Positions 3,745-26,525 of a DNA stretch of 64,000 nt are shown piece by piece. The notes beneath the pieces are model-generated. The model ran no database searches. It was given only the letters and a program-made list of their open reading frames with translations, and was not told the DNA's origin. The first letter of the stretch is position 1. The number at the start of each line of letters is the position of its first letter. Both the position numbers and the translations under genes were made by a program. Origin of the DNA: Paraspadella gotoi. Lineage: Eukaryota; Animalia; Chaetognatha. The stretch covers positions 12,905,081-12,969,080 of the forward strand of contig CM119267.1 of NCBI GenBank assembly GCA_051294375.1. The letters run 5' to 3'.

Positions 3745-5154
3745 CAAGTGATTTTACAACAATTTTTCTCTGTTAAAGTTGAGTTAGTGAGAGAGAGAGA
3801 GTGTGAGAGAGAGAGAGAGAGAGAACAAGAGAGACATTCTAACAAAGAATTGAGTGAGAGATAGTGGTAAGATGTGAGGGCAGTTCAAGGTAAGGACAGG
3901 GGAAGAAGAAGTAAGATTGTGAAAAATGAAAAGAGAGAGAGAGAGAGACAAATAAAATTTAATACATTTAGCAATGTACAACAGAGAAAACTTAAAGATT
4001 TACTAAGTATTAATACTATTAAAAATAACTATGAAAAACTATGAAAAATAAATTAGTAAAATGAAGTGAAATTGAAATGGAACAATAAGTGGTGAGGGAT
4101 AGGTAAGTAAAGAGTTAGTGAAAGTAAGTAAAAGAAAAGAGCTCAAAATGAGCGTCTACGTTCTCCATTTGCCATCTATTTATTTATAGATAGAAAAAGC
4201 TAAAAAATCATCATCATAATCTTTTAATGATTTTATCAGTTTTTTTAGATTTTTACTGAGAAAACATAAGAATTTTTCAAAGCTGTAATTATATTTCTTA
4301 TTTAACTTTTTATGCTCAATCAGAAACCATCAAAAAATTTTAAGGCTTTAAAAATTTTTTTTCTTTTTATAGAGAAGTATAAAAATTTTAATTAGGCTAG
4401 TACTTGCGGTAGCCGACCAAATTTAAATTTTAATGGGAACAGAATTAAACGAATCCATTATTGGTATTAGTTATTTTTTTAAGTTTTTTTCAAATTTTGA
4501 CCCACTTATCAAAATATTGAAAAAAAATTATACTTTGTATAGACGACTTTTCATAAGTTATCTGAATCTGCTTAAAAAAAAAAAAACAATTAAAAACATT
4601 TTTTTAACATTTTCTATCTAAAAATAAATATTAAAAAAATAATTGCTTGTGCTTCTAGCCATTTTAGAAAAAAATGGTCCATTGAAGGTTTTATCAGAAT
4701 TGTATAAAATTTCATTTGGTTCTCAAACTTCTGACCCACCCCATTGACAAAGTTTGGCCCTTCTAGTACCCTCAGAAAAAAGCAAAAAATATTTTAATAC
4801 TATAATCTATGCTCATGATAGATTATTTTAACGCTGTAAACATTATCATTGGCTAATTTTGATAGGTTTCTTATGATTTCTCGAGAATTACAATATTCAC
4901 GTCATTCCTCATCTAACGATATAAAAATATATGAAAAAAACCGCTGACATCTTTCGGAATAATTTTTTTCTAGTTTAGAAAAGTCATGCGATTAACAAAT
5001 CATTGATTAGTGCTCGCTAAGGTTGATTTAAGTCTCCGAAAGTAAAAAGTGCCGAAAGATTTCTTGAAATATTTCATGATTGCGTACGGATTTCATTTTA
5101 TTTCCGTAAAATTCCAAATTGTTATATTCATTGATCTCAACTTCTTTTATCAGC

Positions 5155-6468
5155 ATGAATTATCCTTACGAGGATATTGCGCGCTCAGTCTTGCACACAT
5201 ACAGTGCCTTACCCCGCACGGGAAAACCAGATTTATCCCGAGAATGGACCCATTTGGCTGGAATTGTAATGCTCCAAACGAAAAAAACTTGTTCGGGACA
5301 TGCCTCCTTCGACGTTAGTCCTGTCGCGATCGGTACTGGTTCCCGTTGTCTCGGCGCCTCCAAACTGCCGGTCGACGGATCTCGCCTTCACGACAGTCAC
5401 GCAGAAGTCGTCGTCCGCCGAGCCTTTCTCGTCTTTCTCCTCGATGAGATTGAAAAATGTTTATCAAACGAAGAGGAGAGCAAAATTTTTCAAAAGGACG
5501 GTGTGAAATGCCGATTAAAGCCAGGAATAACTTTCCACATGTTTGTCAGTCACACCCCTTGCGGGGACGCGTCGATCTTTCCTAAAAGCGAGAAAGAGTT
5601 AATTGAGGAACGGAATGGAGCGTCCAAACGTGACGCCCAATCAGAGGACGGCGTCGAAGCCAAACGACTAAAGCTAGAAAATAACAACGATGATGCGATC
5701 TTGGAAGGCGATCTCCATCGTACCGGCGCCAAATGTGTTCCGGGAAACGATAACCAGGACCCTCTACTCCCGGGCATCAACTATCACGTCACCGGCGCGT
5801 TGAGGTACAAGCCGGGACGAGGCGATCGAACCTCTTCCATGTCCTGTTCAGACAAGATTGCCAAGTGGGGATTACTCGGTTTACAGGGTGCGTTGGTTTC
5901 TCTGTTGCTGTCCCAACCGATATTTTTGACTTCCCTCGTGTTCGCGCAGTGTCCTTACGATGAGAAAGCTGTGAGGAGGGCTTTGGTCGACCGCACTCTG
6001 CCTTTGAGAGAAAAATTTAAAAAAAATTTGGGACAAAGCGTTCCCGAACTTATTCTCCGTCGGGTCGATCAGAAATTCGACCAAGGGAAAGTCGCTATGG
6101 AGACAAGCCTTGGTAAAAAGCTGAAGCCATGCCCCAGTAGCATCTCTTGGACATCGTTGGACGGACGTGAAGATATTCGTCAAGTTTTTAACAATGGATT
6201 CAAACAGGGCGTTGTTAAAAAACGAGAAAAAACTGAAACCGCCCAAGTTTACATTTGTAGGAGACAAATTCTCAAGCGATTCGTTGACGCTTTTGATCGC
6301 GTTGAAGCCGTATCCAATTTCGCTTCGCTTCGAACGCTAAAATATTTGGAACTGAAGCAAAAAGCTTCTTGGTACCAAATCATGAAAGAGTTACTCACAA
6401 AAGACGTTATTTTTCGAGACTGGATCGTTACTTCTGAACATACCAAGAATTTTTCACTGGAGACTTAG
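5155..6468 (+). CDS. ADAT1: tRNA-specific adenosine deaminase 1 (ADAT1/Tad1), single coding exon, ~437 aa
   Basis: ORF has the deaminase motifs LHDSHAEVV, HTPCGDAS and KPGRGDRTSSMSCSDKI, plus an N-terminal GKP...EWTHLAGIV and IGTGSRCLG. It has no dsRBD, so it is ADAT1 rather than ADAR. ATG at 5155 directly follows a polypyrimidine-CAG acceptor (5153). Confidence 0.93.
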   Translation: MNYPYEDIARSVLHTYSALPRTGKPDLSREWTHLAGIVMLQTKKTCSGHASFDVSPVAIGTGSRCLGASKLPVDGSRLHDSHAEVVVRRAFLVFLLDEIEKCLSNEEESKIFQKDGVKCRLKPGITFHMFVSHTPCGDASIFPKSEKELIEERNGASKRDAQSEDGVEAKRLKLENNNDDAILEGDLHRTGAKCVPGNDNQDPLLPGINYHVTGALRYKPGRGDRTSSMSCSDKIAKWGLLGLQGALVSLLLSQPIFLTSLVFAQCPYDEKAVRRALVDRTLPLREKFKKNLGQSVPELILRRVDQKFDQGKVAMETSLGKKLKPCPSSISWTSLDGREDIRQVFNNGFKQGVVKKREKTETAQVYICRRQILKRFVDAFDRVEAVSNFASLRTLKYLELKQKASWYQIMKELLTKDVIFRDWIVTSEHTKNFSLET

Positions 6469-6530
6469 GTTACCTTTTCTACCAAACCGTTTTTGTTTAC
6501 AGATACAGCTCAAGTGTTATTAAATGAAAG

Positions 6531-9500
6531 ATGTCTCGTCGCGTTGACTGTGGTAGAGATTACTTCACGCATAACTGTGAAATCGTTAAGGTTAACGATT
6601 TTTATAAAAAAGGATACATCTTCGTAATTATTCCTCTCGCACTCTCTCCGACTACGGTGGACGATTTTAATATCGGTAATGTCTAAATCTAATTTTAAAC
6701 TTAATTTCGAAAAATAGAAAAATTGTACTGCAAAATTATATGAAATTGGTACAACCAATATAAAAATTATCCATTCATTTAATAAATAAGCTATCTTGCC
6801 CCTGACTTTGGACAGGCTTTGGTGGTTTAAGGCCTCCATCACTCTTACAAGATAATGACATAGCAGGTCCCTGCAAGCTTTCAATCAAGACTCTTTCACA
6901 GTCTCGTTTATTCACTCCCAGAGTACCTGGCTTCCCTATCAATGAAGTGGAAAATATTTCAAAGAATGTTTCAATTGTATGAATATGTATATATAATTTA
7001 TGAATCGGCCCGAAATTTTTAGCATTGGCGCCATTAAAATTAAATTCTCTTACACCCCTTTTATATTTTTTAAATTTTCTTCCTAGGTAGTTTGATGAAC
7101 GAAAGAAGCAGCCCTCTCTTAAATTTAGAAACAGTTCTTTCCAAAGAAAAATGGTTTCAGTCAGTCGTCGGGCGAGTATCAGGTCGTTTTTTAAACTTAA
7201 ATGTTATTATTTTCTCATGCACATATGTTATATTTTGATTGGTTTTCAGAATTTTAGAAAATGGTAGTTAATATGAAATGATTAAAAAAATTGATTATTT
7301 TCAATAAAATTTTAAATTTGTGACGCTAGTATTAAACTAGCTAGTAGTAGTAAACTAGTAGACGCTAGTAGTAAACATCAAATATTTTTGGGTTTAATTT
7401 GGTCATGTTCCTTATCGTTTCTAGATTGGATTGACTGCGATTCGAGCGACGAAAGCGTTCGCCGAAAATCAGAGGCTGCCTTAAATCAAGAACTTCTTTT
7501 CTCCGCCTATATAAACCTGCTAGCGGTTGTTGTGCCGCTGCGTTCGCGCCGCTGCGCCAATCTCGCCCGCGTCATCAACGACTACACCTTTTCTGGCCCG
7601 AACCAGATGCTTTGGATGCTCTTGCCGCTCGACACCGACGAGGCCGATTACGACGACGACGATAGTGGAGACGAAAGCGACGTCCAAAATGGAAGCAATT
7701 CTCGCGTGGCCCGTGAGGTGACTGTGCAAGTTGGGGCAGGTATAATTTTGGCCAAGGATTCTTTCTCTCTCTGGACAAATTCTTTTAACGATTTGTAACA
7801 TTGAAGGAAAAACTGCAGTCTGCTCAAATTAAAAATGATTTTTCGTTTTCCGTGGAAAGTTTTACTCTGTTCTCTGTTTATCATTCTGATTCTCTCTTGC
7901 CGCGGCTCTTTGATAGGCGTTGTTGAGTCCGGTAAGCTTAATAATATTAAAAATACATGATGAAATAATTTGTGGTTCTCTGTAATCGTTTGGGCCATCG
8001 CTTAATCAGGACCAAAACGACTCAGTTCCAAAATCCGCCCGCAACGCCATTTTATCGTCGTTGAATTTTTCGACTTCGACGGACAAGACTCAGTCGGTTC
8101 CAGATGTCGACGCGGCCGTCGGCGACGCCACTCCTAAAAAAGTAAGTTGATTAGTTTGTGCTTTTAATGATTATTTTTAAACCTACTTTATAAAAGTTTA
8201 TTTTTCAACGTTAGCGTAAAAGCAGTTCTTGGCAACGGTTCAAAGTTCTCCATGCTCTGTGCGATCGATGCCCTCTTATAGGCGTCTGTCTTGTGAGTAG
8301 ATATATTGAGATTTTGACGTCTCACTTAACCAAGTTTTCCGTATAATTCCTAACTTCCCCCGTGACTCAAACCGACGAAAATAGGTGTTTTCGTCGACAC
8401 TTCCCCCCGAACCCGTTCTGCTACGCTGGCTGGCGGAACCCGTCAAGTGCGTCTTCATCCCCACCTACGTCTTTCTCATCAATCCTTACGGTTTCCCTGT
8501 CCTTCCGCGCTCCCACCAGTCTTTTGTTCAGAAGCTCATCAAAATTGGTTGTCAATTCGTCGTGTCGGGACCGCCTATCAAAGGCAAGCCGGAGCGGCTG
8601 TACGCTTTGTATCTCAAACATCTTGCCAACACGCTGGGAAAGCCTGATTTGCTGGAGCGGTGGGCGATGGATTACAGCGATCGACTGCAATATCCTTTGC
8701 AGCCATTGCGGGTATTTTTCTATAAGTGATTTAGCTGTTTTTAAAGATATGTAAAATCATAATACCATTCATCGATTCAGGATAATCTCCCGTCAAGTAT
8801 CTACGAAAACTTTGAAAAGGATCCATCCAAATATCTTGTATATGAAAATGCAATTCGAGGCGCCCTAAGCGATCGTGCCAATAGCGAACTAAAGAGTATT
8901 CATATGCAGGTTAGCGCAATTATTGTTATATCGATACCTTTTTATCTCACCTTAAGCCTCGCGATTAAGCCTGTCTTGGCGCGATAATCGTTTAGAATTG
9001 CTTCTCTGTGCCGTCCTCTGGTTAAAACTCTGCAGAAAAAACGTGTGCCAGATAGCGCCCTAAATTATGCTAAAAATGGCTAGTTTTTTTCTAGTATGCT
9101 AAATATTATGCCAAATTATGTTTTAGCTATTTTAATGAAAAACTGTTACAAGAGTACAGAAAAATTATTATTATTAGATCCTATGAAAAATTATTTAGAT
9201 AAAAACAAAAAAAGATGAAAAAAATGAGACTTTGTGAATTGATTAATGCTTAATGCTTAAGCGATGAGCCATATAACCAGTGAAGTCCTGTATATTGCAG
9301 CAGTAATTTTCAAACAGACCAACCAACGCCATAGTATTTTGCTCTTGTAAAGCTGCTTTAACATGCTATTACTAGTATTACTGAACTACACGAGCATCTC
9401 AGAGGAAAATCGGTATTAACCAAATACTTTGGCTTTATTGTATAACTGCTAGCAATCCCTTCCTGGACTCAAAAAATTGTAATGGGAATTAACATGATTG

Positions 9501-12500
9501 TTATCAAAGAAATAAATAATAAGATAAGCAAATAGCATATTTAATACATTGCCAAAGGAAGTGTTTTTCATAATATGTCCAATGCTGTAGATCGAAAAAC
9601 CTTAAATTTTTTTCACATTTTGAATATGCCAGATTGTATGCTATATGCCAGATCATTTTTATCGTCGCAAACGCTTAGCGATATTGTAACGCTTTTGCCC
9701 ATAAGTGGCGTCGTCGTCGTTGTTGTCGTCGGCGTTCCAAATTATAGATCGCCTTTTTTATGATTAAATTTGGGTGTATGAAGCTGAAAATTTATATACA
9801 GCTTCCGATGGAGGATGGAGACAGCGTTCGTTTTGATCTTGGACCGCATCTCTCGTTCTTTTTCACTCCCGGATGTCGGCGTACTTCGAAGGATGCCTCG
9901 ACGAGGCGCTTGAGGGCCTTGTCAGGAGGACGACCTTCTTGGTCAGGCGCTCCTGCCACTGGCGTTTTGATGCCGCATTCTCATACGACATCTGGCTCTG
10001 GGGCTCAAGCGGGAGACTGTTGACCAGCCTCTCGATGTCGTAGGACCCCTCGACTGTCCTCTGTCAATGAGCTACTCGGGTCGACGAGTCTCTCGGCGGG
10101 TGACTGTCGATGAGCCACTTGGCGGACAACTGTTGATGAGCCATTTGGCGAACAACTGTCAACGATCATCTCGGCGGGCCTTGTTGACGAGCCACTTGGC
10201 GGATGATTGTTGCTGAGCTACTCTGCGGACGATGTGGCTCAAAGAGACGGGGTTCTTCTTCCTCTCCCAACGCTACTCGGGTCGACGAGTCTCTCGGTGG
10301 GTGACTGTTGATGAGCCACTTGGCGGAAAACTGTTGACGAGCCACTTGGCGGAAAACTGTTGACGAGCCACTTGGTGGACAACTGTCGACGATCATCTCG
10401 GTGGACCTCTGTCGATGATCATCTCGCGGGCCTTTGTCGACGATCATCTTGGCGGACCTCTGTCGACGATCATCTCGCGGGCCTTTGTCGACGATCATCT
10501 CGGCGGGCCTTTGTCGACGAGCCACTTGGCGGATGACGGTTGATGAGCCACTCGGCGGACGATGTGGCTCAAAGAGACGGGGTTCTTCTTCCTCTACCAA
10601 CGCCCTCTCTGCGCGCTGGTCAGCTTCTCCAGCTTATCGGCATTTTGACGATGGCATCCTTGGCAGCCCTGCCGCTGAGTTGCCGGCCTTCTTTGATCCG
10701 ACGAGTCTTCTTCCGCGTCTGGAGGCCAAAGAAGGATACCGACTGCCTGGCCCCGCTTTGTTCTCCAGCGATGGAGGACTATAGTCCTTCCAGGCCAGCT
10801 TTTCATGCCGGTCGATGTCGCAGGGGCGACCTTCTGCAGGAGTTTTGCACGCTGGAGGTGTCGACGGACGCCTCCCCTCAGTTGGGCCCTCTCTCACAGC
10901 GCGTCCATCTTAGGGAGGTGGTCAGACTCATTGCCCCTTCCTGCCTTCTTTTGTACTGCAGCAGGCTCAGTTGGCTTCTGAGCCTCTTCGGTTCATGGAT
11001 GAGAAGCCTTCCGGCATCCAAGGAGCTCGACGCCGACCCTGATTCAGAGCGTCCACCGCCGCTTTCAAGCTCGCCATCAGGATGTTTTTAGGCGGTGCCA
11101 CTTCTCTGAAATCGACAATTCTACCTTCTCCCTCATCGCCGATGCTGGAGAAGTCTAGCAGGGAGCTCTTCGTGGGAACGAGTTTCTGCGAGTTTCTTCC
11201 GACGTCTTCCTTCGGGATGGAGACGCTCAAGAGAGAGGACTCTCCTGAAGACGTCCTGCACTTCCTCGGGTCGTTGTTTGACAGCCGACAGCACGATCAT
11301 CCTTCACGGATCAGCCATCTCAGCGACTCTCCCTGAAGGGAGCGCCGCCTCAGTTTGCGCTTCGACACGGCGCCACTTCCGGTCACGCCGGGCGTTTTTC
11401 ACCGACGCTCACGCTTCTTCGTCGCTCTAGCATCGGCACGTCGCCCTTCAGAGTTCATTTCTCTTTGCTGCGACGCAGGCCGCCTTCCTCAGCGGCAGTC
11501 TTCTGGCGTTTGGTTTCATCGACGTTCTTAGACCGTCAGGATCGTGCCTTTTGGCTCGCACACGCGTCTTGAGGCTTGGCCGTTCTTGGATCACTGCCCA
11601 GACGAGGGCTCTCTCCTTTTTGGAATTGCACCGCCGCACAATTTTTTCTTCTGCGCCCCGCTCCGCCTTCAGTCGGCCCTCGACGTGGTGCTTCGCTCCC
11701 TTTCAGGGATCTCTTCTCGGAGGTCTCAAAGTTCCGGGATCGCCGCTCGCAGAGTGGATCTCGGCGTCATCTTTGCGCTGGATTTTGGTCTGGCGCGCTA
11801 AAGACCGTCTTCTGACTTCTCTACAGGGACGTCGCTTGGGGCGCCTCTCCGGGTCCTTCTGGAGACGATTGAGGACTTCCAAACCCGGATGAGAGAGAGG
11901 GATCCCCAGGAGGATTTGCCGGGCTTCCATTGGTCGGGGCCGGTCATGTGACGGCATTCCCTGGTTTTTCTTTTTTGCATCTCTGGATGCTATTTTGTTC
12001 GTTTTTCTTACTCTGATAAACGCGCGATCTATCGACTTCGCGAACAAAAAGCATTTCGTGGTGAGGCGGACCGATATAGAATTAATATTCCATAAAGGAA
12101 TTAAAAATTAATTTTCATTTATAGTAACGTCTGGCGAGATCACTATACTTTTAAAATATGAATTTTAATTTCCATTTACGGCGAATATAAGTTATCATTC
12201 GAAAGAATCTACTAGGTGGTGATGGTGGTGGGCGCTGGCCGCGGTCCCCTCGTCCAAGCGACCCTCAACGCCTCCCGAGACTCCGGGATCCCGGTCAAAG
12301 TCTTTGCCGTTGAAAAGAACCCTGGTTGCGCCCTCCGCATTTCGCACATCGGGGACTACGACGCAGCATGGCGAGAAAGCGTCACCGTCGTTTACTCCGA
12401 CATGCGGGACTGGGAGGCGCCGGAGAAAGCTGACATTCTCGTTTCCGAACTCATCGGCTCTTTCAGCGACAACGAACTTTCGCCGGAATGTCTGGACGGT

Positions 12501-13058
12501 TGCAACCCTTACCTAAAGGACGACGTCGTAAGCATTCCTGATCGTTACACCTCCTACGTCGCTCCCCTGCAGTCGACGAAACTCTTCAATCAGATTCGGT
12601 CCTATGTCGAGGAAGAAAAGGGACCTTTGGCTATTTTCGAGATTCCGTACGTGGTGCGAATGCGTAATGCGCTGATCCTGGCCCCACCACAACCCCTGTT
12701 CACCTTCGAGCATCCCAATCGAGATCGCCCGATCTCCAACGAGCGCTACGAAGTCCGGACGTTTGCTGTCGAGGCCGATGCCACGCTTCACGGCTTCTGC
12801 GGATATTTTCATGCGCATCTTTACAAGGAGCAGGAAATTTCTATCCTGCCGGAGAAATACACTCGAGACATGTTTAGTTGGTTCCCGATCTACATTCCAA
12901 TTCGCGATCCGGTTCAGTTAAAGAAAGGATCTTGCGTGGAACTGCAGTTTTGGCGGCGAGTTGAGAAGAAAAAGGTATGGTACGAGTGGGCGCTCACCAA
13001 GCCAGTTCCATCCCCTATTCACAATCCTATTGGGAGAAGTTATGTGATTGGTAAATAA
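6531..13058 (+). CDS. PRMT5: Protein arginine N-methyltransferase 5 (type II), 8 coding exons: 6531-6675, 7087-7182, 7425-7717, 8010-8141, 8215-8292, 8385-8711, 8781-8909, 12216-13058 (~680 aa)
   Basis: GT-AG junctions are phase-compatible and give MSRRVDCGRD..., WFQSVVGRVSDWIDCDS...SEAALNQEL, RWLAEP, LQYPLQPLRDNL..YENFEKDP.KY, VVGAGRGPLV, SELIGSFSDNELSPECLDG, MFSWFPIYIP and HNPIGRSYVIG. AATAAA lies at ~13180. Confidence 0.95.
6738..6982. repeat. Dispersed repeat with one fixed end (possible 3' end of a 5'-truncated retroelement)
   Basis: TATGAAATTGGTACAACCAATATAAAAATTATCC... also at ~27596, ~34343, ~37282, ~62614 and inverted at ~58835-58910. The other end is variable. Confidence 0.7.
8939..12152 (+). 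mobile_element. Helentron-associated (HINE/DINE-like) element family A with nested inserts, filling PRMT5 intron 7
   Basis: Degenerate 5' end TTTTATCTC...AAGCCTGTCTTGGCGCGATAATCG; 3' end TAGTAACGTCTGGCGAGATCACTATACTTT; T-run flanks. Confidence 0.65.
9806..12075 (-). mobile_element. GC-rich decayed retroelement-like insert (gag/ORF1-like remnants, internal tandem repeats)
   Basis: Abrupt GC shift where a family-C repeat breaks off at 9805; broken Arg/Pro-rich minus-strand ORFs; repeats of GAGCCACTTGGCGGA and TGTCGACGATCATCTCG at ~10050-10600. No RT or integrase motif seen. Confidence 0.45.
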
Positions 13059-13552
13059 TTAAACACGAAGTTGGGAATCTCATTTTCTTCCTACTATGTT
13101 TTTTTTACCTTTTCGTTTCAAACAAATCACTATGAAACAATCTAATTTCATTGCGCTTTATTACATTTTTGATTTATTGAAATAAAAAATTAATAAGGAT
13201 TACAGGACGGGTTGACGTGTTTATCTATGAGCAATGAGCATGAGATGTTTTTGTTAGTTTTTCAAGAATCCACTTTCGTTTTCTAGGCGAATTCAAGAAT
13301 CTTTACTTCCATGCTAAGAAATTGTCAAATATTTTCCATAAGAATTTATCCGGACAAATATTATGTCATTATGTAATTTAAAAAATTTTGCTACATTAAT
13401 ATTTCATTTTGTAACGCGTTATATTTAAAAAAATGAATTAATAATCATCTCTTTTTTCTTGATTATTTGTGAACCTTCTTAGCATGTGCTACATTAAGTT
13501 TTTCTGTTTTATAAGGTACTACTTGAAAAGTTGGTAAAATATCATAAAAAAT

Positions 13553-16500
13553 ATGGACATCACTGCTGATCAGTTACTTTTCTTAGAAGTCATTTCGCGA
13601 GGCGATGTTCCACCTCTGTTAAAACTACCTCTGGAAATCCGCAAACTAAAATTTGATTTCGTCCGCGCTCGACTGAAAAAAATAAATAAAGGGCCGACTC
13701 CTTTCCTCGTGACTTTTCCTCTGCGAATAGAGCCGGAAAAAGGATCCCCGAAGCCGAATCAAAACACGGCGCTTTTCTGGGGAATCGTTGGGGAATGTGC
13801 CATCAATCGTCATCTCCGTCTCAAAGCCGATTGGGAGCGCTTGGTCGAGACCATCTCCTTTGATCATGATGTCCTCGAGGTCGGTCAGGTGGTGCTCTGT
13901 CGATCAAAACAACAGAGATTGTCCCCCTCCAAAAAAATTCTGGAATGTCAAAAAGATTTGGATTCGTCGGAGGCCCCCGATGGTATCGCGGAGTCTGAAA
14001 CGAATATTTTTCGCGCCGTCATCCTCACGAAAGCACCGCTCCAAGTCTTCGCCCTCGATAATGGATATTTCAAGCGCGTTACCATGAAGATGTTGTTTTG
14101 TCCGGTAATAGAGGAGCTTCAGCCCGCAGAACAGCCGTTGTTCTCGACCGTGGCCGCTCCTTTTGTCTCTCTCGTTGAGGTGGAGTTAGTCGAGGATGAG
14201 GACGACATCAACGACGACTTGGGTGAAAACAAATGCAGCAAAGTCCCCGTTAAAATGATCGAAGAAGAAAATAGAACGGAATTTTCCATTTCGCCTGTCA
14301 TCGTAAAAGAAAATAATGGTTCTTTCTCTGAGGAAAGGCTGGACGTTGCGGCCACTGCTCGGTCTATTCACGCATTTGATTACGGTGCTAGCGTTGAGGA
14401 AAAACCAGACACGGACTTACGGAGCGAAAGCACTATTGACCATGTTAGTTTGGGTATATATTGATTTAGGAATTAGGATATTTATAGTTAATATTTAACT
14501 TAAAATTCTAATACTGTTACACGCTTTGCAGATTCTTCTTGGCTCCGAAAGCGTATCCGAGGATATTGTTCGATTTCTAAATTCTCAAACTAAAGGATCC
14601 GTTGTTTTCGGCATACTCGGTATGCCAAAGACCTCTGTTGGCATTGCAATCCAGCCAGTCGACTTCCTCGTCGTAGAAAGACGCATCCGCGACGCGATCG
14701 GGACCCAGCTCGGCGACGAGGGGGAATTCGTCCAAAGCCTCCTTAGCTTTCGGTTCATAGAGGTGGTTGGGGAGAGCTTGGATGGGCCGATTCCCTCACG
14801 TCATCGTCACGTCATGTTTCTCGACGTCGCCGGCAGCGTAAACGAAAAAATATTTTGCTTTCGGGTGAGCATCATCGCGAGATGAAATTGACTCATGTGC
14901 AAAAAAAAAAAACGCGCCACTTTAATTTGCAGATACTCCATAAGAATATTTTTTAAAAAAATATAAGAAAAATAATTTTTATTAAAAAATGAATCGATGT
15001 CTATATTTTCTATAAGTTTTATCAAAATTGGTTAAGAAAAAGGGTCATTCAATTCAACTTTAAAAATAGGCTAAAATGGAGTACAAATTCAGAAAGCTGA
15101 GCTCCTGGCGATTCCGAAAATGTATTCACTTTAAGCATTTGATGCATTCTACCCCATTTTATATCGGTTTTAATTATAATATAAAATAAAAGAAACCTAT
15201 CTGAAGAGTTGCAGCTCAAACGAAAAGGCCAATCCACCTGATATTTTTTATGAATTTGTTATTACTGAATTAGAAAAATGTAATAGAGACATTTTTAAAT
15301 TTCAACTTGTATCCTTGAAAAGGAAACATTTTTAAACTTTAACCCTGAATTCTTTCTAACTGGAATGCGTTTATCAAAATGTCTCTCTATTACATTTTTA
15401 CAAATGTTTTTAAGATTGCTAATCAAATTTTTAATTCAATATTATTGCAGTCGTTTAGGCTGCAACTCTTCAAATTTAGTGTAGATTCATTGTAGCTCGA
15501 ATTTCTTTACCATCTATTTAACTGAAGATTTTGTTCATGACTGGAAAACCAACAGAGTAACGAGATTAATTGCTTAATTCTCCCCTTCTAAATTATCCCA
15601 TACCGTGTTTTAACTTCTTACCTAGAATTTTTTAACAACCAGATTGAAAAACGAATCTTTAGAAAATGTGCTTACCCATTTAACTTAACAATTTTGTTAT
15701 TTACCCATTTAAAAAAAATTATTGAAAACGGAATGTTTACATATAAATAAGAACTTATTTTTTTGTGATTACTGATGACTATAATGTATTTCTCGATATA
15801 TTAGCTCTAACACATCAATGATTACGTATTGTTATGCTGAATGACCTTTCCTCTTAAGCTGTTTAAGAGATATGATTTTTTAAACTTGAGTGTTCCAAAT
15901 CAGGAAAGGAAAATCGAATATTATTCAAAAGCTTCAAAATCATTAACCTGTCATGTATCTTATTTTTATCGTCGCAATCGCTGAGCGTCATAATCATAAT
16001 TCGATGTTCTGACATGATATAAGTGTGTGCCCGACAATATTGAGGGGGCGGACCGACGGACCGACAAAGTGAATTATAGAGTCGGGATCTGCTGATAAGC
16101 AGACCCGACTAAAAATGACTCAATTATTGATACACGAATATACTTCTACGAGTAAACTTCTGTTAGATCGAAATAATATGCAAAAAAATTTCAATTTTGT
16201 AATTCTATTTCAACTTGTCAAATAATTGAACAAAACATTTTAAAATGAAAATAAAAAACAAAAACCGAATTGCAATTTTAAGGCGAGTTTATCCCGATGG
16301 AAATCGAAAAAAAAAAAAAAAAAAAAAATTAAAAAATTAATTAATAAGACCAAAATATTTATTCTCGATTTAATAACATTCGTCTGGATTGGTCATAAGT
16401 TTTATTCCGCCTCTTTCTAGGACTACAATATGCACCAATTGCGCAAATTTTTTCTAAAGGGGTCAACTTTTTGGATATGAGGGGACAGGAAGTTGGAATC

Positions 16501-19500
16501 CTAATAAAGGTCTAGTCTCTTTAAAAGGTATTTAAGTTAGCCATATATGAGACTATGGCCTGGTTGATACTTCAAATAAGGACCTAGCAATTGCAAGTTA
16601 TGGGCGTTTTTATTCTATTATGCACAACTTTGTTTGTAAAGTCTCAATCCAAAAAATGAAAAAAAAACGCTTTATAGCTTGAGGCCAGGGCATTTGTATC
16701 AATCGATACCCGGGAGATGTGTTAATGCCAAGGGTCCTGAATTTGACGATTGAATGTATTAATTTTTGTTTGCCATTTTTTTGTTGATCCTCTAAGGAGA
16801 GTGGTTTTTTTGAAAAAAAAAATATTTTTTTTTTAAATTTGAAAAAGTAGTTGCCACTATCTTCTGAAATACCCTCACAAACTCTTTCCTCAAGGGCAGA
16901 GAAATAAAAAAAGATCAATAAACAATAAGATTTTAATAAAAAAATTATAATTTCTGGAGATTTTCGAAATTTTCAATTTTATTTTTTAATTTTTGGGCTT
17001 ACCGAGTATTTTTTTAGAATTTTGCCATTTGAAATTTTTTTTTTTTAAAGTTTATGAATTTTGTTGCTTGACCGTAATTTAGGTTTTTAACAGAAAATGA
17101 ATTGTATGAAAAATGCTTAAGCATCAAGGATCAATCCGCCTGCCAGGAAGTTGATTAATGAATGCAATGATTGAACCAATTTATTGATGCGATGTAACCG
17201 AATATGATCGATTGTGATGAATAACAAAGATGATTGAATGCGATGATAGTCAACTCATGTGATACGATAAAAATAATCATTTTGTTTGATATAGATGGAT
17301 AGTTCATTCATTGATGCGTATGATAAGTCATGTCCATTGTTACGTATAATAGTCATATTCATTGTTACGATGATAGTATCATCGTCTTTGGTACTATGGA
17401 TGATAGTCCAGTTCATTGATGCGATGAATAGTCATTCATTGATGCGATGATAGTCATTCATTGACGGGCGATCAATCTCATCGTAATAAAACATAACAAT
17501 GAGTGGCCGTGTAATGAAAGTGAGAAGAGTAGAGAGATAGCAGAGAGAGAGAAAGAAAGAGAGTAACGGTCACAAAAATCTCAGATGTATAATTTGGGAT
17601 TTTGTATTGAGAAAAAAGCGCGGAATAAATGGCAATAATAAAGTTTTTAGAGTAGGAAGAAAATAATTCAGAATTTTTAGAAAAAACGGCCGAACGATCG
17701 ACGCAAAGAGATCGTACGTAGAGAGAAGAGAGGCGCTAGGACAAACCGCTGGACAGCGCTTTCAGAGCTGAACAGCGTTTTTAGACGAGATCTGAATAGG
17801 GTCGAACTCTATAAATAAATATTAAAAAAATAAAATATTTGGGTATAGTTGTGGTGAGCAACAACAACGCTAAACAACGCGCGAAAAGGGAAACTGACAT
17901 TTAACAATGTAAGATTCCTGGACCTTAATCAACCTTGCTTTTTCTAATTGTACATTGATTGACAAGTATATTAAAAATGTATAAGATTTAATTCGTTGAG
18001 CAGGTTCTCCATTTCTAAATATTTTGACTCACCCCATTGAGTAGGGGCTTAACCGCCTAATTCAGAAGAAAAAAAGAAGAGAGAGAGCGACATTACATTA
18101 TAAAGTGAGAAGGAAAACTTGAACAGCTGCTGGAACAGCCGCTGCAGATGGTTTTTACACGAATCCTAGAACAGAAGCGACGGAGAAAAAGAGAGAAGAG
18201 CACTAACAATAATTAACTAAAAGAGAGAGAGAGAAGAGCTGAACAGCCCTTTACTCCGTGCGCGGGTAGCGGGCCGGAGGATAGCGCGAAGTTCCTTACC
18301 CAATATCCAAAAAATTATAAATCTGTAACGCAACGCCATTTTTCGGTCGCCTTCTCTGTCGCTCTTCTCTTCGTACTTCTTCAAATCATGCCATTTTCAT
18401 CTCTCGTCTTCATTGTTTCGTCATGCGTCTTCGAGCACTCTGTTGCTCAGTGCTTATTTCTTTCATATCATTTTCGTCGTCGTTTGTCGTCGTCTTCTCG
18501 TCGTCAGTTTTGTCTTTCCTCTTGTCGGTCATTTTTCGTTGTTGTCTGTTGTCATATATTTTTTTTNNNNNNNNNNNNNNNNNNNNNNNNNACTTGTCAA
18601 ATAATTGAACAAAACATTTTAAAATGAAAATAAAAAAACAAAAACCGAATTGCGATTTAAAGAGAAGTAAAATTCAATGTAAACTAAAAGTTAAAAATTC
18701 GGCCTAAAAATACAATTAGTTTTAAAAACTTATATTATATTTGGAAATTGCAACATATTCATTTTTTGTCATATTTTATTTCATTTTAAAAGCATTACAT
18801 TTCTATACCAAAGGTCCAAACATGATTTTATTTTCTGCCATAATTTAAAGTTGTTTCGTCATTATCACTGATATAATTTATGTGCTCGTCATTTGGTGGG
18901 GAATGCCCAATGCTTAATCATTGTTATTTATTATTTCATTTAAAAATCATCACATTTCTTTACCAAAGGTCCAGCCATATAAAATTAAAGTCTGTCTCGT
19001 CAATTCACTGCAACTGATATGAATTTACTGTGCTCATCGCCATTTGCGCGAGAGAAAAATCGCCCATTCTTAAATCATTGTATTCATTTTATTTATTTCA
19101 AAAGCATGCACAATTTCTTTACCAACGAGTGTGCCACAACTTGATTTCTATTTTCATGCCAGATAAATTAAAGTTGTCTGGTCATTATACTGATATTGAA
19201 TTTTACTGTGGCTTCATTGCATTTGACCGGAGAATAGGCCTCATATGCTTTAATCAATCTGTTATTTATTTATCATTTCAAAAGCATCACATTTCTTTAC
19301 GCATCGTCGTTACACATTGATTTTAATTGTTATGCCTATAATTAAAGTCTGCTGTGCATTATCACTGATATATTCTAATAGTGTCATCATTTGGCGGAGA
19401 TAAGTGCATTTCTTAATCATCTCGTTATATTTTTTATTATTTCATGTTCAAAAGCATCACATTTTCCTTGATACCATAGGTCCAAACTTGATTTTATTTT

Positions 19501-22500
19501 ATGGCCATAAATTTAAAGCTTGTCTCGATCATTATCTAACTGATACTGCAATTTAATGTGCTCCATCCATTTGCGGAAATGCCGCAATTTCTTAAATCAT
19601 TTGTTATTTTCTATTTGTTTCATTTCAAAAGCATCACATTTCTTTATGTAAAACGGAAGAATAATTCCGGCGAAAATATTGGGCCAAAAACTTGCCATAA
19701 AAAACTGGCCAAACAATTAAGCAACAAGGCAAAACATTTTTTATTATTAATGTCTTTTTTCAAATTTTTCATTAGATGTCTTGTACCAGAAGAGCCAGAA
19801 CAGCATTCAAAAAGTTTTCTGTCATTCATCAATGTTATGTGATAACCCGTGAGCTAGGAAGGATGTCAAAAATTTAATCGCTGCCACTCTTCATACTTAA
19901 TTTTAATTTTCATTCATACTTTTTATCATCTTAATTATTTTTTATTTCTTTTTTTTTCTTTTTAATTCAAACTTTGTATCATTCATTGTTTCATTATTTA
20001 TCATTTAGTATTTTTTTTAATCGACTATCTTTACCGGAGTCATCTTTATAACAGGAATTCGGCAAGCATCAATCTAACCATACAACTATTAAAAATATTG
20101 AATATTAGATAATCACTCTAAGTTAATAAATATTAAAAATATTATTTTAAAAGAAAGGCTTCCACTTCGTGAGTCAAATTGTATTCACCAGCCCCGACAT
20201 TTCTGCATAGGTCTTTTTTCAAAGGACACGAAATTGTCCAGTGCTGTCCATAAAGTTCACATCGACTACAGAATTCTTTGCGCCGAAATGAAAGGATAAC
20301 TGGGTCCGAAAAGAGTTGAAGGCGGTGATAAACGTCCGTAATGTTTGATTCAAGCGATAGATGTCGCGCGTATCTTTCCGAAAAACGCCGTACAAATTTG
20401 TTGAGACCTTCGGGACCTGTTAATTAATTCAAAATTTTAATTATTTAATAGATTATAATGGTTTTCATTTTTTAACTATAATAAAACTTTGTTTTTATAT
20501 GACCTTGTTCTGTCATTTGACCGAGTCCAAATCCGTCGTTCAGGTCAATAAGCTGAAATGAATGAGCGAGCACCGCATGAATACTTTCACTGAGATTAGC
20601 CCAAGGAAAGTTGTCGACTATCAAGCAAGCAGTTTCAGTACAGAGATATTTTAACTTTTCAATGTCAACTCGGTTTTTCGATGATAAAACTCGGAGAATG
20701 ATAGCAAGGTTTCGATGAATAGAAATAACGTTGTCCTTGTTTTCAGCTGGTAGCTTTTCTCTGAATACGGGCAGAACTTCCTCTGAGAAAAATCGCCAAG
20801 CGGCGTTGCCTGTGTCTGTAGTTCCGCCTAAAATTTAAAGAGAGATTAATTTTGAATTAATTTACCAAATAACAGCAATTAAAGAAATCCTAATCAGAGA
20901 ATTTTTAAAGTATTCAAACCTGAAAAAATACTATATAAAATTTTATTGCTGTCCATGAAAAGCAAATAATTTGTTTTATGATTTTGATAAAAAAATGTTA
21001 TTTTTTAAATGAAGGAGATAAAAAGCAAAACAGAAAAGAGAAAGAGAATGGGTTATATATTTAAAACAAACGAACATAGCAACATATGGAGTCACTTTGT
21101 TAACAGGGAATATTTCTACTTTAACAATACCTTTTGAGGACGGCATATCCATGATTATACCAGTTTTTTCAGCAATAGCACGAATCCAGTTTTGACGAGA
21201 CTTTTCCACTTTTTCTCTTTATTTTTCACCAGATGTTCTCCAAACTTTTACCTTTGCGCTCAGTCTGTACAAAAACTTTTGGAACCAAGAGTAAACTCTT
21301 AATCTTTGATGCAATGGGCGGGGCGATTGATTGATTTCTTGAACAGTTAATGGTTTCTGGGTGATACCTTGTCTTGTTTCATAATCATTACGTTCCTTGA
21401 GAACCTCACCTGTTTGCTCATCAAAACATCTCCGAAAGGCTTCATGAATTTGTTGCATTGATCTATCTAGCGGTAAACCGGCAATTATCATTTCGCGCGA
21501 CTGCGCCTGTTTTTCAGAAACTTTGCAATAGTTACAAAATACTCCGCCTGTTCCCGCGGCCTCTTTCACAGCTTTACCATCTGCAAGAAGAAGCTGAACC
21601 TCGTTCTCAAAGTGAACTTCAATATCATCAAGTTTTATAACACTTCCCGCTGCCTCTACCTCGGCCTTCTCTCTGTCAAGAATCGGTAAAAATTTAGACA
21701 AAAGTTCCCTATTCTCTTTTTGCGGCATAATCATGTAAGGCCTTATTCCGTGCGGGGATGCAATAAGATGGTTTAAATAAACCTGATCACCAGATTGCGT
21801 AGTAATGTCGCGCAAGGCAACAATGACGAGTTCTCGAAATTCTTGTGCGAGATTATTTCTTGATGCTTGCATAGCTTTTTGTTGATCTCCACTGCCATCA
21901 AAGCCAGTGAGCCAACGCACCTTTAACGGAAAAGCTGATGAATCCAGCGAGTTGATCTTATCGATAAAATCTGGCAAGAAGCATGTACGCGTAAGGGTAG
22001 TTTGAAAAATTTCTGGAAGAGTTCCTCTGACTCCGCCCAAAAATTCAATGGTTTTGTAATACATGTTTTTTTCATACAATGACATCTTATAGACTGGAGG
22101 AAGGCGAACGCCATACTGTAACAAGCGCAAACGGAGTTTTGTCCATTGACGCTGCGAAAGTTCGAGTTCAACGTTTTTCATAAATTCTGCTTCTTCTATA
22201 GTCATGAGACAATTCTCTTGTTCTTTCTGAAAATTTCCTTCATAAATCAATTTGCCAGTTTGGCCTAAGAACCGGTTAGAATTAAAACATTCTTTTTGAA
22301 TAACACGACCGCATAACTGCGTGACTGTTTTTCCTAGCTTCTCTGAGGCATCTCGAAGAGCATTGACGACTGGCTGAAGCTTCTCTGTCTGATACTTAGG
22401 AGAAACATCATCGAGTTTTTGAACCTTAGGTCGACCTCGTTTTCGTCCGTTTTGAAAAGCTGGAAAATCAGCATTCAAGGATGGCGATGGTGAACAATGG

Positions 22501-25371
22501 CTATCCATATCCTGGTGGTTTTGAGAAGAAATACTAAGTGGAAGGGGCGACTAGATTGCCTGTCTTTGACTTAAAAAGGGATCAAAAAAGGAACATGGCA
22601 TTCTTGAGCCTGTTCATCTTGGGGTTGACAATCTTGAGCTTGGCCGTTTTTAAATTGGCTGTCTTGAGTTTCGTTGTCTTCCAAATTCTCTTGCCTTGCT
22701 TCGCGAGACTCTTGCAAGGGATCCAACAATTGCTGCATGCTTTTTGTGAGTACTGCTGTATGGAGAAAGTCAACGGAAACGCTGGTTTTGTTCTTTTGTT
22801 TTTTTCGAAAATGATTTGCAATGCGGCATTTGACTCTATTAATGAGATCATAAAAACGATTCTCTCTATCATCCTCACTTAATTCTTGTTTGAACTGTTC
22901 AACAACCCACATTGCAACCTTTTGGTAACTGTCAACTTCATTTTTTTTTTCAAAAGCTTCTTTAAAAGTAACCCGACGTCTTTCAAGGTCAGATTCTTCC
23001 ATGGTAACAATAAATGCCCGAAGTGCGCAAAACTGAAAAAAATTTACTAATGAAATGCGAGGTTTTGGCATATATTTTTAGTCGGATCTTCTTATAAGCA
23101 GACCCCGACTTTGAGATAAAATGATTGTCATTTTTTTATTATAAATTATTGATAGTTTTTATATTTTTCTATTTGTTGGCTCAAACTTTTAAATCTTTGT
23201 AATTGGTATATAACTTATTAGAATAATTTAAAAAATTGTTAAAATTTATTAATGAATTTAAATAATCAAAATGTCTTCTGATATGATTCAAAGTAAAATT
23301 CAAAGTAAAATGAATATTTCTCCCTTCTTCTCCCTATTTCAACTGTGGATATCAACTTTGGAATATAATATAATATAATATAATACTTTTTAGACGAGAC
23401 GAGACGAGTCTTGTTGACGAGACTGATTGACGAAACCTTTTGGACGAGACTTGTTGACNNNNNNNNNNNNNNNNNNNNNNNNNNNNNNNNNNNNNNNNNN
23501 NNNNNNNNNNNNNNNNNNNNNNNNNNNNNNNNNNNNNNNNNNNNNNNNNNNNNNNNNNAGGGCGTTAACCTGGAGGTCTTTTTAGAAAATCAGGCAGTAA
23601 TCAGGCAAAATCTTGTCGGTAAATCATTTTTATCATATCAGAAACTCGAATTATGATAAATTATGCAAAAAAAGTCCGTCTGTCTGTCCGTCCCCCCTAA
23701 GCATTAAACTTCAATTACTCGTTATTGGATGGATGGATTGGAATGAAATTGTGTGTGTGGGTAGGAAAGTGTGTGATTGAGTTGGATATAAAGTTTCGAT
23801 AGAATCGTGCGAGTTTAAAGTTTAAATGGAAAAAAAAATCTATTTCACTATTTGAACGCTAATTACGGACGGGGCGATTGACTTAAAATTTTGTATGTGG
23901 GGAGGAAAGTGTGTGATGAAGCTGGATATCAAGTTTCGATGGAATCGTCTGAGTGGAAATGAGTTTAAATTGAAAAAATAAAAAACCTGTTTCACTAATT
24001 GATTATGCTTCTTTTTCTTTTTATATTAAATGTAAATGCAAGATGTATTAATTAATCAGTTAATTAATCAATTAATAAATAATTAATCGGTCAATTAAAT
24101 ATACAATCAATCAATTTATTTAGTTAATAATTAATATAATAAAGTAATTAATCTACAATCAAGTCTATCATTATCAGCATTATTATCATCGTCGCAATCA
24201 TCCTCGTTGCTTTTGTCGTGGTCAGTGACGAAAAGACCTAAAAACAAACATTTTGGATCAAATTAATTAATTTATTAGTTAATTTATTATTTTAGTTTAT
24301 ATAGTTTGTATTAATTAATTAATTACCGCTAATGATCGTGGGCAGATCCGACATTGTTTATTCAAACTTTTTTTTTTGCACATGACTGGAGGTGGAATTT
24401 CCATCTTGTAGAATATCTATTAAGTACTCCCGCAGAGATTCTACCCGTGGAGGCAATTGACATCCAACAATGATGTCTACAAACGCAACCTCTTTTCTGA
24501 AGCCGGCGTGGTTTATGAGAGAGCGGAAAATAGACGGAAAATAGATCATGGTGGTCGTTTAACTGGGTAAATTTATTTCTTATACGTAAATTTTTCCGGG
24601 TATGTACTTTGCACGTAGATTATGAGACTTGTAGAATTGTATAATTTTAACGTGAGTGCAACCAATGGTAATAATTAATAAAATCTGTTCGGTTATGTTT
24701 AAAAGAAAACGGAATACGGAAAATGTTACAACGCAAGTATTGTTCGATCCGCAATTCTTCATGGGTGACGAGTGCCCTTTCGTCGAAGATCAGACGACGC
24801 AAATCTCCCCGGAGATTTTCCCCGCTTCGATGTCCCTTAACGATTTGGCGAGAGATATTTCAGCCATGTACAACGCTTCTGTCGGAGGTTAATCGAAACA
24901 AAATTTTATTCTTACTTATTACTACTTATATTTCTCTTCGACATAGGTTCTATATTTTTCGGTTTTTCCGGTTCTACCTACGAACTTCGGACGAGCGGCA
25001 TCAAGATTCTCTCTCCTTCGATTAGTTCTTTTGAGCGAATCGTTCACGATGCTGTAAGCAGTATGAAACCTAACTCTCCGGTTTTTCCTGCGCGCGTCTT
25101 CCTCCATGCCATCTATGAGCGCGAGTCTTCCTCGGAGATTACCCCGATCCGCGACAAGTTCGTGATCGAAATCCGCGTGGCGCCTCGACACGATTTGGAG
25201 TTTTTCTCGGTAATGTTCCGAGAAACTGCAGACGTTCGACCTCACAGAGGCCTAGTGGCTTTCGACGTCAGAACGGGAAAGATGGTGGGGCAACGCTCTT
25301 TCTATCTGCGACTTGGCACAGAAGTGAGGGAAGTTTCTGTCAACGAAATTCGAAAACGAGCTTTCGAGTAA
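13553..25371 (+). CDS. Extended-Tudor + two Schlafen/AlbA_2-like domain protein; exons 13553-14443, 14532-14864, 24436-24566, 24706-24887, 24947-25371 (~653 aa)
   Basis: Exon 1 has the eTudor pattern FWGIVG...LEVGQVVLCRS...IFRAVIL...VFALDNGY...PLFS. Exon 2 has DIVRFLNSQTKGSVVFGI...FRFIEVV...HVMFLDV. Exons 4-5 have LARDISAMYNASVGGSIFFG...FVIEIRVAP...FYLRLGTEVREVSVNEI. All four introns are GT-AG with matching phases (0,0,2,1). The join across the gapped 9.6-kb intron is inferred. Confidence 0.72.
15036..15853. mobile_element. TTAA-flanked MITE (Sola3/Kolobok-like termini)
   Basis: TTAA|GAAAAAGGGTCATTCA...TGAATGACCTTTCCTC|TTAA. Inverted copies at 31322-32781 (with a nested MITE) and 49127-49944. 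Confidence 0.75.
18567..18591. other. Assembly gap (25 N); other gaps at 23459-23558 (100 N) and 30408-30432 (25 N)
   Basis: N runs in the sequence. Confidence 0.99.
18770..19645. repeat. ~155-180-bp tandem repeat, about 5-6 noisy units
   Basis: AAGCATCACATTTC-like anchors at ~18790, 18944, 19102, 19282, 19452 and 19629. Confidence 0.7.
20142..23002 (-). pseudogene. RAG1-like/Transib-superfamily DDE transposase, disabled; exons ~23002-21131, 20827-20504, 20416-20142
   Basis: Motifs in order: RGRP, WLTGFDGSG (D1), LLLADGKAV...VFCNYC (D2 + CxxC), PRPLHQRLR, GGTTDTGNAAWRFF, SIHAVLAH, GLGQMTEQGPEGLNKFVRRF (catalytic E), RLQLFSDP. Two phase-compatible GT-AG introns. In-frame TAA at 21219-21221; frameshift plus TAG at ~22551-22590. 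Confidence 0.88.
23076..24377 (+). mobile_element. HINE-like family B element (interrupted by N-gap)
   Basis: 5' TTTTTAGTCGGATCT..TTATAAGCAGACCCCGACT, GTCY microsatellite, 3' GGCAGATCCGACATTGTTTATTCAAACTTT. Further copies at ~43285-45000, ~45032-46135, end ~48205 and ~16000-16115 (-). Confidence 0.65.
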
Positions 25372-25999
25372 GTTAGACTTAAATGTGGAAAACGATTGAA
25401 GTTCATTTTTAGAAAGTTAGTAGCTTTTCGTCGGTTTGGCTGTTGTTCTGTAACTCCGTTCTATATCATTCGGTTAATATTGCTTCATTTAATGTTCAAT
25501 TTATGCTTAATACTGTTTCAAACTTGTAATCATGTGATTACGTGCAAATCCGATAATAAAATAATATGACCAGAAAGTTAATTTAATTGATACTAAAGTG
25601 AGGTATCATTTTACGCTGGTTATTCGTATATCTTATGACCTTATTGAAATGCGTTTGCGAGATTAGAAAGTCAAAAACAGAATAATTTGTATGATCTTTA
25701 ATTAATTATCTTATAACATATAAGTACGTAAATGATTAATAATAATTCATAAGACGCTTTTTTTGCATATTTCTCATATTTGTATAGACTGACGACGTAC
25801 ACGTTATCATTTGTATATCCGTGCAAGTAGTAAGTCAAGCGGCGCGACAAATTGGAATATCCGTTTTTAGTTATAATAATTTTGACTGTTTCCATTTAAT
25901 TTTTTTTACAGAGACTTATTGGATCGGTGGCGTTCTGCCACAAAATTAGGAAAAGATTTACTGGCGAAGAAGTGACCTTAAAAAGCTAATGTGTTGATC

Positions 26000-26525
26000 T
26001 TTTTTTCTTGCCAGACGGGCTAAAGCCTTGGGCGTAGATAATCGTTTGCTTTTTGTGACGTCGTCGTTGTCATCACGCTTTTTTACAATTGGAAATTGTA
26101 AAAGTGTATGGTGGACTAAAATCAACCTTCAGCGGCCATTGATGCAGGAGTCAAGTTATTTGTTTCCCAACCCAAAGTTCCGGGTAGTCGCCTAGAGGGA
26201 TAGGGCGCTTAACCCGCCTGTAGCACGGTATTACAGAAGCTTATTGAACGGTTCTGTCACTACCTCATAACAATTCTTACTGTCTTATTGGTGAGCTCGA
26301 CTTTCGAACACAACAGCAACAACTTTCTGGCAACGTGCCTCAACCTGGCGATGCACTTTCCGCCAACACATCAGGCGACATGCCTCAACTTGGTGACAAA
26401 TTTTCCACCTACAATACACTGAAGAGACGTAACAGATTTTTCCCCTGGGGAGAGGGGATTTCTTCTTTTGTTATTTTTTCATTAATTTTCTTTTATATTA
26501 ACATCTGGCGAGATCACTATACTTT
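26000..26525 (+). mobile_element. HINE-like family A element
   Basis: 5' TCTTGCCAGACGGGCTAAAGCC, GTC microsatellite, 3' ACATCTGGCGAGATCACTATACTTT. Confidence 0.7.

Follow-up and report, generated by a model that had tools for sequence, protein, structure and literature searches.

Does the chaetognath Paraspadella gotoi encode a single polypeptide in which a Tudor domain is joined to two Schlafen-like folds, and what could such a protein do? The question is raised by a locus in a stretch of 64,000 nucleotides (nt) of contig CM119267.1 (assembly GCA_051294375.1, positions 12,905,081 to 12,969,080 of the forward strand). This whole stretch, called the window in the following, comprises the letters analyzed here. 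An earlier interpretation made from these letters (the sequence-only reading) had joined four listed open reading frames (ORFs) and an unlisted 131-nt exon into one gene with an extended Tudor (eTudor) domain and two Schlafen-like lobes. Joining the exons (Table 1) and reading the last one through to position 25371 indeed gives 1962 nt in a single open frame of 653 amino acids (aa). All four introns 1-4 are of the GT..AG type with the matching phases 0, 0, 2 and 1, and the motifs quoted earlier as well as the 131-nt exon were found where they had been placed.

The Tudor-Schlafen gene is real, spliced and transcribed. One 2006-nt contig (depth 101) from the public run X1, taken from the Logan contigs, which are built as a graph of 31-letter words, crosses all four joints and thereby skips 88, 9571, 139 and 59 nt; the RNA type of this run is a guess. 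The four listed pieces of the contig differ from the genome in no letter. Hence, the predicted junctions 14864/24436, 24566/24706 and 24887/24947 are all present in this one contig. Because it crosses the joint of intron 2, the two N gaps inside this intron conceal no mis-join and the long intron is spliced as proposed, which contradicts the earlier concern that the gapped scaffold might be wrongly assembled. The run contains 0.90 of the words of 13553-14864, and its contigs were compared over 13000-26200. This transcript support comes from one of three runs, from a single study and perhaps from the sample behind the assembly, and one contig is not proof of one molecule. The runs X2 and X3 matched the window in repeats and in no gene-specific sequence. 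Intron 2 contains a second acceptor-like AG at 14913-14931, 67 nt from its start, whose use would yield a shortened form that stops shortly after exon 2; such a joint is absent from the 15 of 98 joints listed.

The 3' end of the gene probably differs from the one proposed before. The 2006-nt contig stops at 25367, where a GTAAGT donor follows directly; another contig of the same run (604 nt, depth 19.5) covers exactly 25338-25941. In a graph of 31-letter words, precisely these limits would result if an intron 25368-25911 were retained, from which we infer a sixth exon; the putative intron 5 finishes with a run of T and CAG. The joint 25367/25912 itself is not among the 15 of 98 joints listed. 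The sequence-only reading thus probably missed exon 6, in which case the main protein would have 673 aa and the 653-aa form would result from retention of the last intron. The contig depths, which are a poor measure, suggest that the form with intron 5 spliced is the commoner one.

Table 1. Positions in the window of the Tudor-Schlafen gene, its parts and its upstream neighbors
Feature	Positions	Strand	Remarks
ADAT1-like adenosine deaminase	5155..6468	+	PF02137, E 9e-78; first gene of operon-like cluster
PRMT5	6531..13058	+	8 exons, 680 aa; stop 13056-13058; second gene of cluster
Unpaired pyrimidine-rich AG acceptor	13500..13515	+	37 nt before start codon; probable trans-splice site
Exon 1	13553..14443	+	aa 1-297: N-terminal segment, then Tudor-like domain and acidic linker
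Likely extended Tudor domain	13685..14197	+	aa 45-215; ~30-aa insertion; aromatic cage apparently degenerate; from ESM Atlas
Exon 2	14532..14864	+	aa 298-408: bulk of Schlafen-like lobe 1 (aa 302 on); without catalytic motif
Intron 2	14865..24435	+	9571 nt; joint crossed by one contig; two N gaps, repeats, minus-strand Transib-like transposase
Exon 3	24436..24566	+	131 nt, aa 409-451: completes lobe 1, followed by linker
Exon 4	24706..24887	+	aa 452-512: start of lobe 2; degenerate active-site segment at 24770-24808
Exon 5	24947..25367	+	core and end of lobe 2; family-specific insertion common to relatives
Probable intron 5	25368..25911	+	544 nt; retention gives stop at 25369-25371 (653 aa); from contig ends and depths
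Probable exon 6	25912..25975	+	adds 20 aa, giving 673 aa; inferred

Both lobes are cut by introns and only single exons had been scanned by Pfam; therefore, we built our own profile of the Schlafen family PF04326 (SLFN_AlbA_2). Its sources were bacterial AlbA_2 domains, among them five loci derived from a pattern that were checked and all lie in genomes with PF04326 above cut-off. In the second version of the profile, diversity was added and 175 domains were reduced to 74 at 45% identity. Applied to the spliced frame, this 74-domain profile scored 20.9 bits (single-sequence E 1.5e-8), while the top of 1000 shuffles reached 7.1 and the reversed frame -0.8. The score comprises two colinear domains, aa 302-409 (3.9 bits) and aa 496-547 onward (13.3 bits). 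With a glocal alignment, i.e. global in the model with cheap gaps at penalties chosen by us, lobe 2 attained z values of 7.2 and 8.5 at scores reached by none of 500 shuffles, while the Tudor region used as control gave a z of -0.6. For lobe 1 the z values were 3.3 and 4.0, with 2 of 500 (full model) and 0 of 500 shuffles reaching the score; its glocal score of 25.2 exceeded 193 of 194 windows from real proteins, the sole higher one being a PF04326 member. The 3.9 bits of lobe 1 alone correspond to an independent E value of 0.0028 for one sequence and are not significant across Pfam. When trimmed to its first 52-73 residues, exon 2 matched PF04326 as the sole family of 24,736, with 14.3-14.5 bits and E 0.054-0.061, below the cut-off of 25.3 bits. 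The order of elements typical for PF04326 (helix, N-x-x-GG, strand, strand, YxR-G, helix) has a colinear match in the spliced frame, and the motifs of lobe 1 follow one another colinearly for about 110 residues.

Other approaches to the lobes were less informative. When single exons were compared pairwise, as profiles, with the AlbA_2 alignment, the expected motifs emerged, but at low probability (5.6-37.8%). Exons 4 and 5, which split lobe 2, had no PF04326 match in Pfam, and sequence searches of the PDB with exons 5, 4 and 2 gave nothing relevant. The structure model of exon 5 had a mean predicted local distance difference test (pLDDT) value of 38; fold searches with that model listed no Schlafen chain and are uninformative either way. 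At the level of sequence, lobe 2 is well supported as Schlafen-like, and lobe 1 is probably so, with weaker support.

In the N-terminal part, aa 45-215 likely form an extended Tudor domain. The ESM Atlas returned a top match of 0.91 with 181 of 256 features in common; all 30 matches carry PF00567, 29 of them in the set with PF00567 only, and these look-alikes are eukaryotic PF00567 clusters throughout. Tudor domains of the PF00567 type are the kind used in scaffolds of RNA silencing. Exon 1 and parts of it remained blank in Pfam, as did the Tudor part against PDB sequences, and a single-sequence structure model of the latter (pLDDT 30) was unusable. The Tudor call can thus be regarded as moderately confirmed, from language-model features only. 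The putative positions of the aromatic cage, read by eye against the Tudor consensus, are S118, F153, A167 and N170; one of the four is aromatic. Since the cage is apparently degenerate, binding of methyl-arginine is doubtful. The proposed order of eTudor, first and second Schlafen-like lobe is therefore firm for lobe 2, moderate for the Tudor domain on the basis of the ESM Atlas, and weak for lobe 1 by the profile.

The combination can be regarded as a new architecture of known domains. Judged by sequence similarity, the lobe 2 family is present in at least two other sequence groups. When 1.84 billion representatives were searched with exon 5, two matches, P0001 and P0002, were obtained; P0001, a surface protein rich in repeats, was discarded as a chance match. 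Over the C-terminal 45 residues, P0002 agrees at 53% (E 1.7e-5), P0004 was added by a profile search, and P0003, P0005 and P0006 are cluster mates. The ENA contigs from which these relatives derive have 515-1081 nt, and every relative aligns with the terminal part of the AlbA_2 profile at 7.8-8.7 bits. They have in common the insertion that precedes the last strand of lobe 2, and 20-24 of 38 tail residues agree between the groups. The last residue of P0004-P0006 coincides with that of the 653-aa form, as is expected if intron 5 is common to them. Two further sets of candidates were rejected. Six of 11 metagenome loci from the Joint Genome Institute were translated and are by eye GC-rich bacterial genes resembling quinoprotein dehydrogenases, with one short shared motif, and the single plasmid match of exon 2 (E 1) runs antisense to a different gene and lacks PF04326. 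Word-based protein searches yielded full-length relatives in none of 3596 candidates for exon 1 and in none of 7992 for the exon 5 alignment, which is weak evidence. An organism with the whole arrangement of Tudor domain and two lobes was not found in the sequence searches; the search for the architecture thus succeeded for the C-terminal part of lobe 2 and not for the complete protein. The Rosetta-stone argument of the sequence-only reading is weakened by this result, because it requires the fusion in more than one genome and no second instance was found. Its remark that it knew of no described protein with such an arrangement agrees with the literature searched, in which no Tudor-Schlafen fusion turned up; most subscription papers and supplements lie outside that search, and an earlier mention is possible. 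In the part of PMC12839542 considered here, Schlafen and Tudor are treated in separate bacterial proteins.

The next question is whether the protein could cut RNA. The catalytic motif of Schlafens, according to the portions of the literature drawn on here and below, is Ex4(E/D)xK (PMC13056530, PMC9482658, PMC13462974). In SLFN11, the exchanges E209A, E214A and K216A abolish activity while D252A is still active, i.e. the third carboxylate is dispensable, and Schlafens without one of the three active-site residues have been described as nuclease-deficient (PMC9482658). Likewise, CbCash requires E17, D22 and K24, and K24A is inactive (PMC13462974). Among our reference AlbA_2 domains, 51 of 74 show E-x4-E-x-K and 66 of 74 [ED]xK. 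Lobe 1 has no Ex4(E/D)xK motif. The active-site segment of lobe 2 reads E474-x4-E479-x-Q481 in the register given by the bacterial profile and E479/Q484/S486 in the register given by the mammalian P-F-x-E, neither of which includes a lysine. Because the catalytic lysine is absent in both registers of lobe 2 and the whole motif is absent in lobe 1, the lobes are probably unable to cut RNA alone, and the gene product is probably not a complete one-chain nuclease. Accessory features of known Schlafens were looked for as well. No transmembrane helix was found (the top 19-residue hydropathy is 1.53, in the Tudor region, and 0.32 in the last 60 windows), there is no zinc finger and no cysteine from aa 496 to the end, and the linker (SWAVDL) and helicase domains are absent, the frame finishing at aa 653 or 673. 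The single-chain Tudor-Schlafen module for small-RNA processing that the sequence-only reading had inferred is thereby weakened by the missing lysine and membrane anchor, while the gene and its domain order hold.

The closest parallel is the PUCH nuclease of Caenorhabditis elegans, in which three proteins with a single SLFN fold each form one enzyme, with catalytic residues in TOFU-2 only and a membrane anchor in SLFL-3/4 (PMC10567574). TOFU-1 docks on the eTudor domain of TOFU-6 away from its degenerate cage, with a weak contact (dissociation constant ~20 uM), TOFU-1 and TOFU-2 alone are insufficient and need SLFL-3/4, and the enzyme requires a 7-methylguanosine (m7G) cap, by which it has been proposed to spare trans-spliced mRNAs (PMC10567574). 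PETISCO also binds SL1 RNA (PMC6601512). Common to the Paraspadella protein and PUCH-PETISCO are SLFN-like folds, several of them non-catalytic, combined with an eTudor whose cage is degenerate, apparently so in the protein described here; in addition, signs of trans-splicing are seen in both animals. In contrast, the worm system has one SLFN fold per chain and its Tudor domain on a separate protein, whereas here two lobes and Tudor lie in one chain. Furthermore, SLFL-3/4 carry a C-terminal transmembrane helix, which is lacking here along with a complete active site. Neither TOFU-1 nor TOFU-2 nor SLFL-3/4 was among the matches of the sequence searches, in which no direct comparison with the worm sequences was included.

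The mammalian Schlafen core (SLFN5/11/12/13/14; PMC9482658 and PDB alignments) offers a second parallel, since it has two tandem lobes with a degenerate first one, an arrangement that is also probable here; in the PDB alignments the second lobe has the P-F-x-E segment before the N-x-x-GG motif, as here. However, the protein described here has no E-F-K, zinc finger (H285, C287, C321 and C322 in the SLFN11 core; PMC9482658), linker or helicase and carries an N-terminal Tudor domain instead. Nuclease-dead SLFN5 and mouse Slfn2 have likewise lost at least one of the three active-site residues but differ in architecture (PMC9482658). Prokaryotic sensor-Schlafen fusions such as pSlfn and Cash also join a Schlafen to an accessory domain, and our profile was built from such domains; they differ in keeping Ex4(E/D)xK and in having one Schlafen domain, and the word Tudor is absent from the main text of PMC13056530 (PMC13056530, PMC13462974). 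The gene product thus resembles both the PUCH-PETISCO module and the Schlafen core, yet cannot be assigned to either. Outside the Schlafens, extended Tudor domains are joined to RNA-acting and in part nuclease-like domains in Tudor-SN (SND1) and the TDRD proteins, where the partners are staphylococcal nuclease, helicase, KH and LOTUS domains and not Schlafen.

By analogy, we tentatively favor a scaffold function, in which the Tudor domain and the two Schlafen-type lobes would serve for docking and RNA holding in a complex that processes small RNAs or tRNAs and needs an active partner. The Tudor domain with its degenerate cage might bind a partner protein via a surface other than the methyl-arginine pocket, as in TOFU-6. 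The two lobes might associate with each other in the manner of mammalian Schlafen cores and hold RNA, while cutting would require an active Schlafen subunit in trans, in the way that TOFU-1 and SLFL-3/4 require TOFU-2 in PUCH. The protein would then correspond to the fused docking and non-catalytic parts of PETISCO-PUCH and not to the whole enzyme.

Several observations weigh against this scaffold. Over all single-exon pieces nothing in Pfam rose above cut-off; of the expected TUDOR and SLFN_AlbA_2 matches, there remain the sub-threshold hit of exon 2 and the score of our own profile. On the spliced frame, the first version of that profile (139 sequences, mostly close relatives) reached 4.5 bits, with one of 1000 shuffles higher. 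For exon 2, the ESM Atlas named no family; in this resource 4-10 of 100 shuffled proteins reach 0.9, and its error rates are not calibrated for parts of proteins. The relatives are fragments of 51-120 aa without Tudor or active-site part. Finally, lobe 2 keeps two glutamates at the right spacing, which a dead enzyme need not do. Some of these points touch on the domain assignment itself. Only lobe 2 might be Schlafen-like, the middle or N-terminal segment having another fold with chance likeness in its motifs, and the low bit score of lobe 1, the two shuffles that reached its full-model score, the silence of the Atlas on exon 2 and the dependence of the Tudor call on a single tool would fit such an error. 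We consider it very unlikely, given that PF04326 was the only Pfam family found with trimmed exon 2, that the motifs are colinear over such a length, and that every Atlas match of aa 45-215 carries PF00567.

The retained E-x4-E spacing is also the starting point for a more active role, namely a single-chain nuclease with a variant site in lobe 2 (E474, E479 and Q481 replacing lysine), a non-catalytic lobe 1 and a Tudor domain that brings the protein to small-RNA precursors. Mammalian Schlafens likewise combine an inactive with an active lobe (PMC13056530), the dispensable third carboxylate of SLFN11 (PMC9482658) would be compatible with it, and the C-terminal part is conserved in distant relatives (20-22 of 38 residues). 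However, both registers lack the lysine that SLFN11 and CbCash cannot do without, the register with the glutamate pair places an aspartate where the references are mostly hydrophobic, and in PUCH even TOFU-1 together with TOFU-2 is insufficient without SLFL-3/4. Such an active enzyme therefore appears unlikely to us.

The genomic surroundings bear on the favored scaffold and its rivals, too. The gene is the third of a head-to-tail row with the ADAT1-like and PRMT5 genes (window 4913-13515), in which the distances from stop to start are 62 and 494 nt; naming the PF02137 gene ADAT1 is our reading. One 4113-nt contig (depth 99.9) carries the ADAT1-like gene together with spliced PRMT5 and stops at 13510. 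The Tudor-Schlafen contig begins at 13512, with 7 letters foreign to the DNA and four letters before the end of the pyrimidine-rich AG. Each of the three start codons is preceded by a similar unpaired acceptor, at distances of 1, 28 and 37 nt; acceptors of such strength occur at 2 per kilobase (kb) in 6.5 kb of non-coding DNA, with a threshold set post hoc. An overhang into the acceptor combined with a clipped tail has been described as a spliced-leader signature (PMC7986045). The ADAT1-PRMT5 contig, however, is unbroken at its own acceptor. Cis-splicing into 13516 from sites in the window with the same four end letters (5018, 6587) was considered as well and is unlikely, because the upstream contig runs unbroken at these sites. 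The sequence thus points to a probable operon with almost no spacer at 13510-13516 and to probable trans-splicing. These signs fit a cap-reading pathway, because PUCH has been proposed to spare trans-spliced mRNAs by their cap.

Regarding the neighbors, the last PRMT5 exon scored 340 bits against the best PDB chains, presumably vertebrate, and 182 bits against 3ua3, which we take to be the C. elegans protein. PRMT5 makes the mark that Tudor domains read. Little weight is given to this adjacency, because the cage is degenerate and eukaryotic operons are loosely themed. The tRNA-deaminase-like first gene of the cluster would suit a Schlafen of innate immunity or translation control outside the piRNA pathway, with Tudor as sensor or regulator on a tRNA-binding or tRNA-cutting module. 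Fusions of Schlafens to diverse accessory domains, mostly acting on tRNA, are indeed known from prokaryotes and mammals (PMC13056530, PMC13462974). Nevertheless, a cluster of this housekeeping type does not suggest an inducible defence gene, as far as we can infer, the catalytic lysine is missing, and the Tudor look-alikes all belong to the eukaryotic PF00567 clusters mentioned above; we regard this function as rather unlikely. Within the 3.3-kb intron of PRMT5 lies a GC-rich element (~58% GC, 9700-12100) with short broken frames on both strands, partly under a contig of depth 19; one of its frames had no match in Pfam.

The cooperation of Tudor and Schlafen is known from one system, PUCH-PETISCO of C. 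elegans, where it occurs between separate proteins. A natural fusion in another animal, whose two lobes are arranged like the mammalian core, suggests that the tie between Schlafen folds and Tudor-based RNA pathways arose repeatedly or at an earlier time than assumed. The fusion also provides a single protein for testing this tie, and even a dead scaffold would predict a hitherto unknown active partner. At its boldest, it might represent a one-protein PUCH, i.e. a PETISCO-type Tudor dock with a two-lobed Schlafen RNase of variant site that makes the 5' ends of small RNAs in a trans-splicing animal; we give this only a small chance. If it were true, Schlafen-based, Zucchini-independent small-RNA processing would be a wider animal solution, and the split worm enzyme would be linked to the two-lobed mammalian core. 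The gene was missed by ORF lists and Pfam, being split by a 9.6-kb intron with every exon under the Pfam cut-off.

This long intron 2 harbors further elements. A Transib-like (RAG1-related) transposase lies in three pieces at 20145-22550 on the minus strand; its middle piece matches PDB 6pqn (E 9e-6), its 443-aa piece has no PDB match, and no Transib-type ends were found with the patterns tried. Directly upstream of the transposase, an ORF of 168 aa without clear family (22574-23077, minus strand) may be the second gene of the element. High-copy repeats occupy 15993-16116, 23074-23110 and 23609-24330, with summed depths in run X1 from thousands to tens of thousands, and the repeat piece 16049-16084 is also found in the runs X2 and X3 of other organisms. 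A perfect 18-nt inverted repeat (14893-14910 and 24368-24385) lies within the intron, with one arm 28 nt from the donor and the other 50 nt from the acceptor; it could draw the splice sites of intron 2 together, but an A/T run makes up half of it and the energy of pairing is unexceptional. Elsewhere in the window, a MATH ORF (42330-43106) and a BTB/BACK ORF (53584-54282) lie on the same strand 10.5 kb apart and are probably one SPOP-like gene split by a long intron, and a 385-aa ORF at 37469-38623 encodes several C2H2 zinc fingers.

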